A stretch of 64,000 nucleotides of DNA. It comes from a virus. The position numbers and the translations under genes are program-made. Positions 354-44,406 of the stretch are shown here, piece by piece; position 1 is the first letter of the stretch; every line of letters starts with the position of its first letter. The notes under the pieces were generated by a model. It saw only the letters and a program-made list of their open reading frames with translations. It did no database searches and was not told the origin of the DNA. The stretch lies in the IMG/VR virus record IMGVR_UViG_3300025519_000001, positions 32,001-96,000 of that record; one strand, given 5' to 3'.

Positions 354-449
354 CAGAGAATGTTTAACATTGGCTCCCAGAGAGATAGAGGGAAAGAAAG
401 CAAGGGTTACAGTAGAATTTTTTGAATAAAAAGTTCATTTTATTGGGAG

Positions 450-632
450 ATGGGGAGTTTGGAAAATATCAAACAATATTATATTAATCGTATTATTAAT
501 CTTGCAGCCGAAAATAATATATATGAGTATACAGTAAAGAATCTTAGCGATAAAGAGGAGTATGAATTGATTGCTATCTGGGATACACTTAGATGGAAAT
601 ATGGCGATCTAGCGACTCACAACAGACAATAA
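450..632 (+). CDS. hypothetical protein
   Basis: 60-aa ORF bounded by palindromic junction motifs at 426 and 629. Confidence 0.5.
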   Translation: MGSLENIKQYYINRIINLAAENNIYEYTVKNLSDKEEYELIAIWDTLRWKYGDLATHNRQ

Positions 633-659
633 AAATACTATTTGAGGGAGAGATGAAAA

Positions 660-899
660 TTGATATATCTTGAAAAATTCATTGAACAATTTACAGATGA
701 AGAACTTGAAAAATGTTTTATTGAAATTTACGAATGGAGAAAAGTCGGAGTTTTGCCTACTGATGCATTAACTCGTAAGGCATGGAATGATTATAAGAAA
801 CAAAGCCAAAATGAGTCATTCCCTATTCATGCTATGCCTGAAGCAATATTTTTTGAAATTTGCAAACGCAAATATCGTGAAGATGGAATTAATGTTTGA
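660..899 (+). CDS. hypothetical protein
   Basis: 79-aa ORF with RBS GAGGGAG. Confidence 0.6.
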   Translation: MIYLEKFIEQFTDEELEKCFIEIYEWRKVGVLPTDALTRKAWNDYKKQSQNESFPIHAMPEAIFFEICKRKYREDGINV

Positions 900-1114
900 A
901 TCACATGACTTATTTATTGGAAGTGAATACATTTGAATAATAGGCAAGCGAGTATAGATTATTATAAATCAATGGGTTACAGATACACCTGTCCAAATAA
1001 TATAACGAAGCACACAAAATTAAAACATGTTAACAAAAACATGTTTATTTGTGTGCATTTTTATGTTACAATAGCGGTTGGAATAAAAAATATTTTGGAC
1101 AGGAGTTGTTTTGA

Positions 1115-2458
1115 GTGGCAACAACTGAAACCAGAAGTGTATATGATGTGCTTCCCGAAGCCTTACTGGAAATAGCAAAACATCGAGATCAACAACGTGC
1201 TGTTGAAGAATATTTGGTTGAAAATCATGGAATGCTACATGGAACTTTTATTGAATTGGTTGCAAATCCTAAAAATGTTGAGGCTTTAGATGAAATCCAA
1301 GCTGGTGTATTTGCTAATGCTATTTATGAAGTTACTCAAAATACAGAAGTACGCATTAATGATTTATTTGATCAGAGACAAATAAAAAAAATTGAACAAT
1401 ACAAGTTTCCTCGTGAAGAACAATTGAGTTTCCCTCTTAGCTATGAAAGAACCTTGAGCGGAAGTGAAAAAGATTATGTTACAAAATTGCCGTATCAGTT
1501 AATTGCAAAGCACTATAATGATGGTGTTTGGACTTACAACTTTTTAACACAAAGAAATCCAGTTAAAAAAGTTAAAAAAGACGGAAGCATAAAACTTGAA
1601 CCAAAGGTTAACAAAAGAAGTGTCAAAGAAATTAAAAACCTAATTCTTGAAGGAAAGTATTTACCTGATACTCCAATTACTATTAATGTTTTACATGATG
1701 GCGATGACGAATTGTTTTACGATGAAGATAACTGGACACTGATTATTGAATCGGCATCTGAAATTGATATTTTAGATGGATACCATCGTATCTTGGCTGT
1801 TGTTGAAGCTGTTGAAGAAAACCCAGATATTGATGGATATTTGTATGTAAGCATCAGAAATTATGATCTTGAGACAGCAAGATTTTATCTTGGTCAGCAC
1901 AACAGCTTTAACACATTTGATAAAACCCATGTACGTCGCCTGAAAAGCCTTGAATTGGCTGATAAAATCATTGAGGAGGTTGTTTCCAAGTCTGTTCTTA
2001 ATGGACGCCTTGCTCCTAATACTGCTGTTAAACTTAAGTTTAATGAAATTACAAATTTTGCGATTTTGTCTGACACTGTACAAGCTGTTTTTGAACCAAA
2101 AACACCTAAAGACAAGATTGATATTTCTAAAATGCTTATAACTTACTTTGATTATCTATTTGGTAGCTTTGAAGAAGCTTTCGTTACAAATGTTCAGGAA
2201 GTATATAAAACAAGTTGGATTAATCACCACAACACTTTTGTTTTATATATTGTATTTGCTCATGCGCTGTATAAAAAATATGGAAAAGATATTCCGGTCG
2301 ATGAAATTCCTCGTATGGTTAACGAAATTGACTTCACTAAGGGAACTGGAACTGGATTTGACGCGATAATTTCTCCTCAAGGTAAAGTTAACTCAAACGA
2401 GATTAAACGGAACATTAGAAAATTTGCAGAAGAAATGGCCGCTCAAATTCTTAAGTAA
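1115..2458 (+). CDS. DndB/DGQHR (ParB-like) domain protein, SPbeta YopQ/SroE-like
   Basis: ILDGYHRI motif (DGQHR family), 447 aa, directly upstream of an integrase-fold repressor as in SPbeta yopQ-yopR. Confidence 0.72.
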   Translation: MATTETRSVYDVLPEALLEIAKHRDQQRAVEEYLVENHGMLHGTFIELVANPKNVEALDEIQAGVFANAIYEVTQNTEVRINDLFDQRQIKKIEQYKFPREEQLSFPLSYERTLSGSEKDYVTKLPYQLIAKHYNDGVWTYNFLTQRNPVKKVKKDGSIKLEPKVNKRSVKEIKNLILEGKYLPDTPITINVLHDGDDELFYDEDNWTLIIESASEIDILDGYHRILAVVEAVEENPDIDGYLYVSIRNYDLETARFYLGQHNSFNTFDKTHVRRLKSLELADKIIEEVVSKSVLNGRLAPNTAVKLKFNEITNFAILSDTVQAVFEPKTPKDKIDISKMLITYFDYLFGSFEEAFVTNVQEVYKTSWINHHNTFVLYIVFAHALYKKYGKDIPVDEIPRMVNEIDFTKGTGTGFDAIISPQGKVNSNEIKRNIRKFAEEMAAQILK

Positions 2459-2463
2459 ATGAG

Positions 2464-42542: not shown

Positions 42543-42559
42543 TTCTAATAAACATTAAG

Positions 42560-42745
42560 GGGCGACTCGGTAGAATGGAACATCTTAGTCAGTCATCCGT
42601 CCTAAATCGAGATAGTGCGGTTATACATATTTAACTTAACCGTTCACACTCGATAAGGTATCCCGAAAGGGTGAAACCCTACTCACAAAATCCGAGTAGG
42701 CACTTCATACAGAATATTTATGTATATTTATTCACACTTTCCGCA
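42560..42745 (+). ncRNA. putative Cas12f tracrRNA 2
   Basis: CTCGATAAGGTATCCCGAAAGGGTGAAACCCTACTCACAAAATCCGAGTAGGCACTTCATAC resembles the AsCas12f1 tracrRNA core; anti-repeat at 42701-42710. Confidence 0.75.
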
Positions 42746-42777
42746 GTTGCAATTTATATGTACGTATGAAGTGTGAG
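42746..42777 (+). CRISPR. single variant repeat GTTGCAATTTATATGTACGTATGAAGTGTGAG followed by a putative guide
   Basis: 32 bp, same first 9 and last 9 nt as array repeat, divergent centre. Confidence 0.8.
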
Positions 42778-43250
42778 AAAATACTAGATTAAGTCTTGTT
42801 ATGAAATTAGCTAAAGATATTACTTCGGCTCTGATTGAGCGATTCCCCCTAGAGTATGAAAAAGAAAATATTAAAATAAAAAATATTAAAGATAAAGATT
42901 TGGTTAAACGAATTAAAAAGAAAGGGTTAAGCGTAGAGTTGATCACAAAATAAAACATGAAAGATGCATTTCATTAAATGATGTGATGAAGCTTGAGAAT
43001 AAAAGTTATTGTTACAATTGAACTATTAAAATAAAAAATATCAAGATAATTCGAGAGGAGTATAAACAAAATGGATAAATACTCTCACTTAGACAAGGAA
43101 TATCTCGAATACTTAAAGGAGGGCTACTCTCAAAGATACATAGATCCAGACGATCCTTGGTTTACGGACTATGAACTTGAAGATAAGTACCTAGACGGAT
43201 ATGGCTTTGAAAATAAAAATAAAATAATACATAAAGGAGAGTAAAATAAA

Positions 43251-43645
43251 ATGGATTTGGGGTTAAAAAAGGCGGAAGACACGAACGCTGGATTTCGTTT
43301 GCCCTAAAAAAAGCAAAATACAGTAAAGTTCCACACTACAAACACTGTGCTGTTGTAATCAAGGGTGGAAGGCCAATTAGTATAGGAATTAATAAAACAA
43401 AAGCGGGATGTCTGGGAGATCCAATTTATTCTTTCCGCCAATGGCACAGTGAATTTGATGCCCTTTGTAACCTTGATGAGTCTCAAATTAAAAATGCTAT
43501 CTTGTATGTCGCAGGATGGACAAAGGGAGGTAATATTGCAAAATCCAAGCCATGCCCTCATTGTCAGGAGTATTTAAAAAAATTACCGTTAAAATCTATC
43601 GTATATTCAATGCCAGATGGAAGCTATGAAGAAATGGTTATATAA
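43251..43645 (+). CDS. cytidine/dCMP deaminase-family protein requiring a -1 frameshift (or frameshifted pseudogene)
   Basis: HSE (WHSEFDA) and PCxxC (KPCPHC) in the -1 frame relative to ATG 43251; A AAA AAG at 43265-43271. Confidence 0.7.
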
Positions 43646-44369
43646 ATATTTTGGGGTGAAATTCATGAACGACAAAAAAAGACTAGAGTCAATTATTAAA
43701 GCAATAGACGCAATTGGTAAAGATACACTTATTCCAAGACAACATGAACAATTATTTGGAATCCTATTAGCGCAACATATGATTTCCAATGGCTTTCCCG
43801 AAGAAGTTGTTGATCCTGACTTGCTAATGTTATCTATTCGTGATGCTTATCATGAATATAATTGGATAAAAGAAAAGATTAAAAACCCAACAATTGAGAA
43901 TGTATTTACTCCAAAATACATTGAAGAATTAAAGAAAAAAGGTTGGATTTATGAACCAAATAAAGATTGAGTGGATTATTCCTACGAAATTGCGATTTTA
44001 TTGGAGGTGTTTAAAGTGAATTTGTGGTTTACAGCAAATGATTATTATGGTCAAGAAGTCAATTTTACATTTGATGATATTAATTGTGTATATAAAAACG
44101 ACGGAATTATGTATGTTGGAAATCCAATTCCTATTCCAATTTTGATGAATACAATAAAATTAAAAAATTATGAAGCAAATAAATTAAATGAATTCACTTT
44201 TCGTTTTTATGATGGAGTCAACTATAAACAAGGAGTATGCAAAAATATAGTTGCAGTTGATTTACTACAGGCTAAAGACTTTGCATATCAAATTGTTGAA
44301 TTATTAGGTTCGTTGAATAGTAGTGATTGGGACAAAGATACAATTCGATATGAATATATAAGCCAATGA
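43617..44369 (+). CDS. two hypothetical genes (~43665-43970; 43971-44369)
   Basis: ORF track. Confidence 0.5.
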
Positions 44370-44406
44370 AATCATCATTTCATAAGAAAGAGAGGAAGCA
44401 TTTTAT

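Follow-up and report, generated by a model that had tools for sequence, protein, structure and literature searches.

A dispersed palindrome between the genes of an SPbeta-like phage and its possible use as a hinge for gene exchange

The PeSLs of T4-type phages, reportedly described by Arbiol et al. in 2010, are said to combine an early promoter with a stable stem-loop and are thought to act via homologous recombination between copies. The stoperators of mycobacteriophage L5, attributed to Brown et al. in 1997, are said to be asymmetric, repressor-bound sites spread through short intergenic gaps. The element considered here is a dispersed palindrome, ATRAAA-N6-TTTYAT, in a 64,000-nucleotide stretch of virus DNA (hereafter the window), which represents bases 32001-96000 of IMG/VR virus record IMGVR_UViG_3300025519_000001, a single 154,759-bp SPbeta-like phage contig of 33.6% G+C. 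In SPbeta, a dispersed element termed SPBRE is bound by MrpR, a protein of tyrosine-recombinase fold that occupies multiple dispersed sites (PMC10516654), and in phi3T the repressor SroF attaches as a monomer to an asymmetric box of 26 bp (bioRxiv 10.1101/2025.11.27.690993). The SPbeta, Tsamsa and Tyrovirus literature searched gave no account of the palindrome.

What is such an element for, and what reads it? The reading favoured here, at a probability of about 50%, is that the palindromes are hinges in double-stranded DNA, read by a symmetric (dimeric) phage protein, at which gene modules are exchanged between related phages. Each hinge would comprise two invariant 6-bp inverted arms (ATRAAA and TTTYAT) and a 6-bp centre unique within its genome, exchange would take place inside the hinge between copies with equal centres, and only the allelic sites of two co-resident phages would recombine, while the roughly 40 copies within one genome would not. 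The catalyst would be a conserved YopP-like tyrosine recombinase of the Cre/Xer fold; a weaker version does without a dedicated enzyme and would have general or phage recombination use the 18-23 bp of identity as microhomology.

Frequency, symmetry and placement of the palindrome

The window holds 19 exact matches to the palindrome, against 0.43 +/- 0.67 (maximum 3) in dinucleotide shuffles, and the whole genome holds 40. The original prediction had counted 17 in the window and put the chance expectation below one; the shuffled controls correct the number and uphold both the enrichment and the estimate. An unbiased genome-wide survey that took in every inverted repeat of 5 or 6 bp, with spacings of 0-14, ranks ATGAAA-N6-TTTCAT first, with 16 copies where the hexamer counts predict 0.19, and when the arms are fixed and the spacing is varied from 0 to 15 the 40 exact copies at N6 compare with 0-5 at each other spacing. 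The position with the near matches, of which about 12 had been proposed, is mixed. As a class the one-mismatch copies of the genome do not exceed background (24 at N6 versus 12-29 at other spacings), although some 15 of the 24, six of them inside the window, are intergenic and directly precede a ribosome-binding site (RBS), and these therefore look like genuine degenerate copies.

Such figures leave little room for a compositional origin, in which the pattern would be a chance product of AT-rich intergenic DNA with its ATGAAA Met-Lys starts, A/T tracts and weak terminators. It is true that ATGAAA and TTTTAT are common hexamers and that two SPbeta copies lie inside features annotated as stem-loops, but the expectation of 0.19 already uses the true hexamer counts, the spacing scan refutes the idea by confining the enrichment to N6, and controls with the reversed pattern give 0-1 matches in phage records that contain 9-24 of the palindrome, so that the probability of this explanation is practically negligible.

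Those records, each compared with the reversed pattern in the same genome, show the motif to be a conserved feature of large Bacillota siphophages over a wide clade. Exact copies number 14 in SPbeta (control 1), which has a further 35 with one mismatch (other spacings give 0-3 and 9-17, respectively), 24 in Geobacillus virus E3, 21 in Tsamsa, 12 in Alicyclobacillus phage KKP_3916, 10 in a staphylococcal SPbeta-like phage and 9 in IMG/VR provirus 3300018914_000064, the control being 0 in each of these last five. In bacterial genomes the matches gather in a single phage contig, which accounts for 16 of the 26 in Paenibacillus cremeus, 13 of the 16 in Brevibacillus gelatini and 14 of the 20 in Bacillus sp. 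T33-2. The specificity for N6 holds in the relatives as well. Lactococcus phage 949 and Brevibacillus phage Sundance are motif-negative.

Within the genome, 36 of the 40 copies lie at 6.8-82.5 kb, in a long plus-strand run of early, replication and accessory genes, and just four are in the late half; as had been reported, none falls in the structural region at 54-64 kb of the window. The claim that copies sit at gene junctions is likewise borne out, since nearly all of them fill the short gap between an upstream stop codon, which ranges from 9 nt before the motif to 9 nt inside it, and the RBS of the next gene, which is of GGAG type and begins 0-15 nt past the right arm. No junction with a gap below 10 nt has a copy, compared with 32 of the 106 junctions with larger gaps, and the distance between palindrome and RBS is too short for the -35 and -10 elements of a promoter. 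Use of the left arm as a stop codon, proposed for at least nine reading frames, applies to the exact window copies at 17572, 18673, 24695 and 44366 and, genome-wide, to eight of the 40 copies, in which the TRA of the arm ends the upstream gene; in most of the others the stop lies 2-9 nt upstream. The right arm together with a following G does form the next ATG at 13130 and 17588. Where the original prediction saw no copies within conserved operons, the replication module contains those at 23242, 24224, 24695, 25203 and 50488, and the motif is thus not limited to orphan genes.

Is the palindrome then read in DNA or in RNA? The variable purine and pyrimidine of the two arms occur in the combinations G-C (16), G-T (12), A-C (8) and A-T (4) among the 40 copies, and independence predicts 16.8, 11.2, 7.2 and 4.8, so there is no covariation between the arms. 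The right arm is as degenerate as the left, though a stop codon can be provided by the left arm alone. The predicted hairpin has a mean folding free energy (dG) of +0.2 kcal/mol (-1.8 in the G-C class, +4.4 in the eight A-C copies), and in the relatives single arm mismatches are frequent and uncompensated. The independence of the arms, their equal degeneracy, the instability of the hairpin and the uncompensated mismatches are together in keeping with a symmetric protein that reads double-stranded DNA, not with an RNA hairpin. A function in RNA, as intercistronic hairpins that serve processing, mRNA stabilisation or translational coupling on early polycistronic transcripts, is accordingly very unlikely. 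It would suit the location of all copies on the transcribed strand between stop codon and RBS, the stop codon within the left arm of eight copies and the excess of G-U (12) over A-C (8) combinations, but the A-C mismatches are as frequent as independent arms predict, neither the free energies nor the mismatches in relatives are those of a maintained stem, thermophiles are among the hosts of motif-bearing phages, and an RNA role leaves the exchange joints described below unexplained.

Beyond the two arms the flanks of the 40 copies show no conservation, apart from a bias at the spacer edges, where the first base is seldom A (5 of 40) and the last seldom T (3 of 40), a symmetrical depletion. In the genome of the window phage the motif is nearly all-or-none, with ATGAAA the arm in use. 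Some copies have individual surroundings. That at genome position 100433 (window coordinate 68433, outside the window) lies within a longer perfect palindrome, AGTGCATGAAA-N6-TTTCATGCACT; GTGC precedes the left arm also at genome position 17017 and in the window copy at 23242; and ATAACAG stands immediately before two palindromes upstream of the window, at genome positions 9349 and 9649.

Homology joints at the palindromes

Because the window phage has no close full-length relative, breakpoints were studied in the SPbeta family, with 23-27 kb of early region compared among SPbeta, phi3T, Goe13 and Goe14. Many homology blocks among these phages begin at the first base of a palindrome or stop 0-6 bp past its last base, with the centre always included; for instance, a 3,007-bp block that is 100% identical between Goe13 and Goe14 is bounded by two palindromes. 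Palindrome edges account for about 11 separate sharp joints, each of them at a site whose centre the phages have in common. When a sharp end is defined by at least 90% identity inside and at most 45% outside, 26 of the 112 sharp ends are at palindromes, and these represent 26 of the 70 that are intergenic, whereas the palindromes cover about 10% of the intergenic bases. The palindromes are also left behind as islands of 18-44 bp: among 120 isolated exact matches of at least 15 bp, 20 consist of a palindrome whose centre is shared and whose map position corresponds in the two phages, with unrelated sequence on either side (about eight distinct sites). Near relatives thus keep a same-centre hinge while the gene on one or both of its sides has been replaced.

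A laboratory joint adds to this. Dragos et al. recorded 16 recombination joints in evolved SPbeta lysogens with phi3Ts, 15 in long homology and one, N1, described as 'non-homologous' (bioRxiv 10.1101/2020.05.06.055103, Suppl. Table 1). With a chromosome-to-SPBc2 offset of K = 2,286,447, calibrated on two independently mapped homologous block ends, joint N1 (chromosome 2170033) corresponds to SPBc2 116414, the first base of the palindrome ATAAAATATTCCTTTTAT, and in the alignment those 18 bp are all that SPbeta and phi3Ts share at the joint. Joint 7 of the same set, with 30 bp of homology, is 8 bp from a one-mismatch copy. The crossovers of the laboratory hybrids Hyb1-3 lie in long homology upstream of the TATTCC palindrome and are uninformative for hinge use.

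Several observations pull the other way. Sharp breakpoints also occur away from the palindromes, 44 at other intergenic positions and 42 within genes, and under the strictest null, with all homology ends assigned to gene junctions at random, the palindrome junctions take 22% of ends against 20% expected, with no excess. The signal is carried by the sharp-end subset and by base-pair precision, and the counts are non-independent between phage pairs; given this and the random-junction null, the statistical support is moderate and the precision of the joints is the stronger point. The sharing of centres at every joint seen is equally what BLAST ascertainment or microhomology-based recombination would predict. 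As for the laboratory joints, 15 of the 16 are in long homology, and the phi3Ts coordinate published for N1 lies 14 bp left of the palindrome at this joint.

Thus the suggestion that these are crossover sites gains ground, in that the palindromes behave as module exchange points in related phages and one laboratory joint falls on a palindrome, and the expectation that breakpoints between relatives would coincide with the motif holds for many sharp ends at palindrome edges with a shared centre, if not for homology ends at large. The proposed shuffling of cassettes within a genome finds no support. The centres of all 40 genome copies differ from one another, and every joint in the relatives pairs sites of the same centre, which together argue for allelic exchange between phages and not for internal shuffling.

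For the window phage itself the breakpoint evidence, taken from sequence comparison with few partners, appears modest. Megablast of the window against phages gave no match. The nearest relatives found are the phage contigs of P. cremeus, B. gelatini and Bacillus sp. T33-2, with a DNA polymerase 67-77% identical, and at the position that corresponds to window 50488 a palindrome is also present in the IMG/VR provirus (44520), in the Brevibacillus prophage (39974) and in Bacillus T33-2 (23707). The first two of these share a 10-kb replication block at 77.6% identity that stops 7 bp past the palindrome downstream of the DNA polymerase gene, whose centre is AAGGTA in both. The one close relative is a 4.5-kb metagenome contig (Ga0207747_1005817) that is 86% identical to window 18774-21069; it opens with a palindrome at its base 1, and its protein-level similarity to the window is lost 5 bp to the right of palindrome 18673, upstream of which it has five unrelated genes.

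Here too there are points that weaken the case for hinges. The only close relative is short, and its junction corresponding to window 18673 is without a palindrome. At matching positions in the distant relatives the centres are mostly unrelated, with one identical among 44. A possible surplus of centres shared between the window phage and its distant relatives was considered and set aside, being not significant (10 versus 5.5 expected, and 4 versus 1.5 for exact sites); just one of the shared centres, CTATAT in Paenibacillus, falls at a matching map position.

Two further observations concern metagenome data. Two contigs of the close relative begin at gene junctions: the first base of Ga0207747_1005817 coincides with the start of a palindrome, and the second contig starts 17 nt upstream of the Gp157-family gene. 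Assembly breaks at junctions where strains differ would produce such ends. A metagenome-assembled genome (MAG), Thermoanaerobacterium sp. Bu65, includes a 1958-bp contig with a DNA polymerase fragment 95% identical at the protein level to that of the window, as well as the exact 18-mer of window 50488, and shows no DNA match to window 6-26 kb; this organism may be the host, or the phage contig may have been binned with the MAG.

Candidate proteins acting at the palindromes

Two genes of the window were originally named as possible sources of a binding protein, a YopQ-like gene of DndB/ParB fold (1115-2458, plus strand) and an MrpR/YopR-like repressor gene with the Pfam domains MrpR_N_CB and MrpR_C_cat (2464-3453, plus strand); many SPbeta genes for replication, structure and integration also have counterparts in this phage. 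The presence of both genes, the recombinase fold and dispersed binding of MrpR in SPbeta, and the occurrence of MrpR-like genes in every motif-positive phage tested for them speak for the idea. However, the motif common to ten promoters with published MrpR peaks from chromatin affinity precipitation sequencing (ChAP-seq) is ACAAATAATATGTATA, situated between a TAGACA -35 and a TATAAT -10, and none of these promoters requires the palindrome as an explanation. Since this re-derived SPBRE is asymmetric and different, and the phi3T box bound by the SroF monomer is asymmetric as well, identity of the palindrome with the SPBRE/MrpR (SroF) operator was rejected. Moreover, repressor specificity differs between SPbeta and phi3T while phages whose hosts belong to different genera have the same palindrome arms, which favours a conserved phage-encoded reader over a fast-changing repressor; Sundance has an MrpR-like gene without the motif; and a homologue search for YopQ detected none in Tsamsa, with its 21 copies, or in KKP_3916. 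Binding of the palindromes by either protein is therefore highly improbable, and the two genes are better regarded as context than as likely binders. A YonO-like RNA polymerase was also undetected in several motif-positive phages, in a family that diverges fast.

A more general regulatory explanation would make the palindromes scattered operators or roadblocks that bind a dimeric DNA-binding protein of the phage, such as the small Xre-type helix-turn-helix (HTH) protein encoded beside the YopP-like gene, which would silence or time early transcription in the manner of L5 stoperators or KorB operators. Gene exchange would then be a by-product, the sites being the only conserved sequence between diverged genes. 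A symmetric motif in double-stranded DNA with independent half-sites is what such a protein would read, the concentration of 36 of 40 copies in the early gene cluster and the constant position between stop codon and RBS are in keeping with it, one-mismatch copies are as common in relatives as operators predict (49-50 versus 6-27 at other spacings), an HTH_3 protein lies next to the recombinase gene, and the palindromes of phi3T and SPbeta often touch a box that is the published phi3T SroF operator. Yet a regulator blind to the centre would not explain why centres stay intact with both flanks replaced, or why homology ends at the palindrome edges; there is no space for a promoter between site and RBS; and the nearly all-or-none motif of the window phage is unusual for operators. 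On balance the operator explanation is rather unlikely.

The box just mentioned is a second dispersed element in its own right. It reads AGAATAAAAATAAAATTA(G), lies immediately before RBSs and often touches the palindrome, as at 113683, 120659 and 132766 of SPbeta NC_001884 and at 7834 and 20967 of phi3T. Its reverse complement is the published phi3T SroF operator, and SPbeta retains perfect copies though its own MrpR binds a different motif.

What, by comparison, could catalyse exchange at hinges? A tyrosine recombinase, which the original prediction had envisaged, is indeed encoded outside the window, at genome 142729-143775. This YopP-like protein of 348 residues has the Pfam domains Phage_int_SAM_1 (PF02899) and Phage_integrase (PF00589), and its gene stands beside those of the Xre-type protein (HTH_3) and a RecD2-like helicase. 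Six YopP homologues keep the catalytic R, K, H-x-x-R/K, H/W and C-terminal Y, which in the YopP-like protein are R163, K194/196, H253-x-x-R256, a W and Y290. A phmmer search against PDB sequences gave no match, so that a fold search was needed to place the protein; its predicted model, with a mean predicted local distance difference test score (pLDDT) of 72.7 and a C-terminal region of low confidence at 261-308, has a Foldseek probability of 1.00 to Cre, XerH, XerA, Tn1549 Int and lambda Int.

Homologues of the YopP-like protein are present in all eight motif-positive genomes tested. Against an assignment to the hinges stand the occurrence of the recombinase also in the motif-negative phages 949 and Sundance, and the equally good co-occurrence of MrpR-like proteins with the motif. 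With co-occurrence imperfect in this way, the YopP-like recombinase is a reasonable candidate and nothing more, though by fold and catalytic residues it would seem the likeliest catalyst of hinge exchange. That a YopP-family recombinase joins hinges only at matching 6-bp centres, in a natural cassette exchange common to the whole clade (here SPbeta, the Tsamsa-type phages, Geobacillus E3, the staphylococcal SPbeta-like phages and the window phage), is possible but doubtful.

The window also encodes a large serine recombinase of SprA type (51430-53022), followed at 53885-54271 by a small protein that combines a recombinase zinc-ribbon with an AT-hook. At the switch from plus- to minus-strand genes, this pair is likely to be the integration module.

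The copies in the window and their nearest analogues

The 19 exact copies of the window take varied positions relative to the open reading frames (ORFs) around them. The first, at 426-443, has the arms ATAAAA and TTTTAT about the centre AGTTCA and is followed 6 nt later by an RBS and the ATG at 450. That at 4013-4030 (centre TTAGTG) is 45 nt upstream of the gene at 4076-5080, and that at 6193-6210 (CAATCC) starts 7 nt past the stop of the AAA_24 gene at 5152-6186. Palindrome 8223-8240 (CTTCAC) separates ORFs 7968-8219 and 8282-8545, the latter being followed after 6 nt by palindrome 8551-8568 (GTTATC), with the next ATG 21 nt downstream, while palindrome 9813-9830 (TCGGAT) separates ORFs 9538-9798 and 9912-10268. 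The copy at 13114-13131 (GAGGGC) abuts the stop of ORF 12904-13113 and its right-arm AT, with the next G, forms the ATG at 13130. At 17364-17381 (TTATTC) the palindrome starts 3 nt past the stop of ORF 17065-17361 and precedes the GTG at 17393, and the ORF that begins there (17393-17575) ends on the left-arm TGA of the next copy, 17572-17589 (TCTGTA), whose right arm gives the ATG at 17588. The left-arm TGA of 18673-18690 (ACGTGA) likewise terminates ORF 18179-18676, 19 nt upstream of the Gp157-family gene at 18710.

In the replication module, palindrome 23242-23259 (CTGTGG) is 49 nt upstream of the gene at 23309-24235, the stop of which is contained in the centre (GTATAA) of palindrome 24224-24241; this is followed by the ATG at 24261, and the resulting ORF 24261-24698 stops at the left-arm TAA of palindrome 24695-24712 (GAGAAG). 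Further on, 25203-25220 (CATATC) is 19 nt upstream of the GTG at 25240, and 50488-50505 (TCACTC) starts 62 nt past the DNA polymerase gene at 47136-50426. The copy at 31905-31922 (ATATAA) starts 3 nt past the stop of ORF 31504-31902, upstream of the nrdI/E/F block. Six probable degenerate copies, each with one mismatch, complete the set: 11581-11598 (ATGAAAGGTAGATTTGAT), which is followed by an RBS; 11917-11934 and 14697-14714, both intergenic and then followed by an RBS; 14946-14963 and 39222-39239, which overlap the stops of ORFs 14731-14949 and 38995-39225; and 17033-17050, which starts at the last base of ORF 16281-17033.

The palindromes at 40361-40378 (GACACG) and 42957-42974 (GATGCA) form the left and right borders of an entire TnpB/Cas12f-like module, repeat array included, which thus constitutes one unit between them. 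Its gene (40868-42478, plus strand) carries the Pfam domain Cas12f1-like_TNB. Within the module (window 40401-42953), upstream of the gene, four repeat copies of 66-bp period at 40624-40834 make up a CRISPR-like array in a phage. The remaining copy, 44366-44383 (TCATCA), supplies through its left-arm TGA the stop of ORF 43971-44369 and lies 23 nt upstream of a kinase-phosphatase-RNA ligase gene at 44407. The 728-residue product of that gene (window 44407-46593) joins polynucleotide kinase (AAA_33), metallophosphatase and T4-type RNA ligase 1 domains in one chain and looks like a one-protein tRNA or RNA repair enzyme.

If the palindromes are true exchange sites, they would offer a mechanism by which genomes in a large, much-studied group of phages became mosaic gene by gene, and would explain the movement of accessory and defence-related genes between these phages. 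Co-resident relatives would be able to swap single genes or modules, here including the Cas12f/TnpB-like module, at 40-60 addressed positions, and the order of their own genomes would stay intact. The idea can be addressed in the model phage SPbeta, for which there are genetics, a known partner in phi3T and published hybrid phages, and a recombinase whose sites combine short arms with a 6-bp centre open to programming could, if real, serve as a tool. Were the sites instead operators, they would add to MrpR/SPBRE another level of regulation, one deeply conserved among SPbeta-like phages.

How do the palindromes compare with established systems? With the attC sites and IntI of integrons they have in common a location at the 3' end of single genes, overlap with stop codons, a single gene orientation and a candidate tyrosine recombinase. 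However, an attC is an imperfect palindrome of 57-141 bp with R''/L''-L'/R' boxes and a GTTRRRY sequence, and the element here is 18 bp long with the arms alone conserved; the integron integrase adjoins attI and a promoter, and the only YopP-like gene of the genome is some 19 kb, across the record ends, from the nearest dense run of sites, with no attI/Pc; each palindrome-bounded gene keeps its own RBS, unlike integron cassettes; and integrons capture and shuffle circles, where the present evidence points to allelic exchange between genomes. For want of an attC and of an attI/Pc platform the integron analogy fails, and the term 'integron-like', used in the original prediction, is not appropriate in the strict sense.

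The palindrome has the geometry of Cre, Xer and lambda core sites, in which two inverted recombinase-binding arms enclose a crossover region of 6-8 bp; it is a strict 6-6-6, though its conserved arms are shorter than the usual 9-13 bp. The dif and pdif sites used by Xer recombinases (Acinetobacter pdif modules; XerH-difH) resemble it in the inverted arms, the 6-bp centre, the exchangeable modules that they flank and the presence of a recombinase of Xer/Cre fold in the genome. Here, by contrast, conservation covers just 6 bp of each arm; the two arms are identical, so that the protein bound should be a homodimer; and the candidate recombinase is phage-encoded. The arms are not known to match those of dif, and an 11-6-11 dif-like extension of the arms was considered and discarded, since SPbeta shows it only weakly (T-Y-T at -5 to -3) and the window phage lacks it. 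The engineered cassette exchange between heterospecific lox or FRT sites provides a parallel of another kind, with identical arms and differing centres such that only equal centres would recombine, a rule that would protect a many-site genome from internal deletions; for the palindromes such a rule is drawn from some 11 natural joints and one laboratory joint, and plain microhomology predicts matching centres equally.

Among phage elements, the L5 stoperators and the SPBRE/MrpR sites are similar in that a temperate phage carries dozens of copies of one protein-binding site in the short gaps between its genes, where some copies overlap a stop or start codon, but they are asymmetric and repressor-bound, and the palindrome is symmetric, unlike SPBRE, and conserved far beyond the range of repressor specificity. 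The PeSLs differ in structure, since the palindrome has no early promoter (there is no -35/-10 room) and no stable stem-loop (the mean dG being +0.2 kcal/mol), its arms are only 6 bp long and each copy has a centre of its own. In situation the two are alike: both are short repeated elements at the borders of small accessory genes in the plastic early regions of a large phage, and in both cases the element marks the breakpoints at which related phages differ in gene content.

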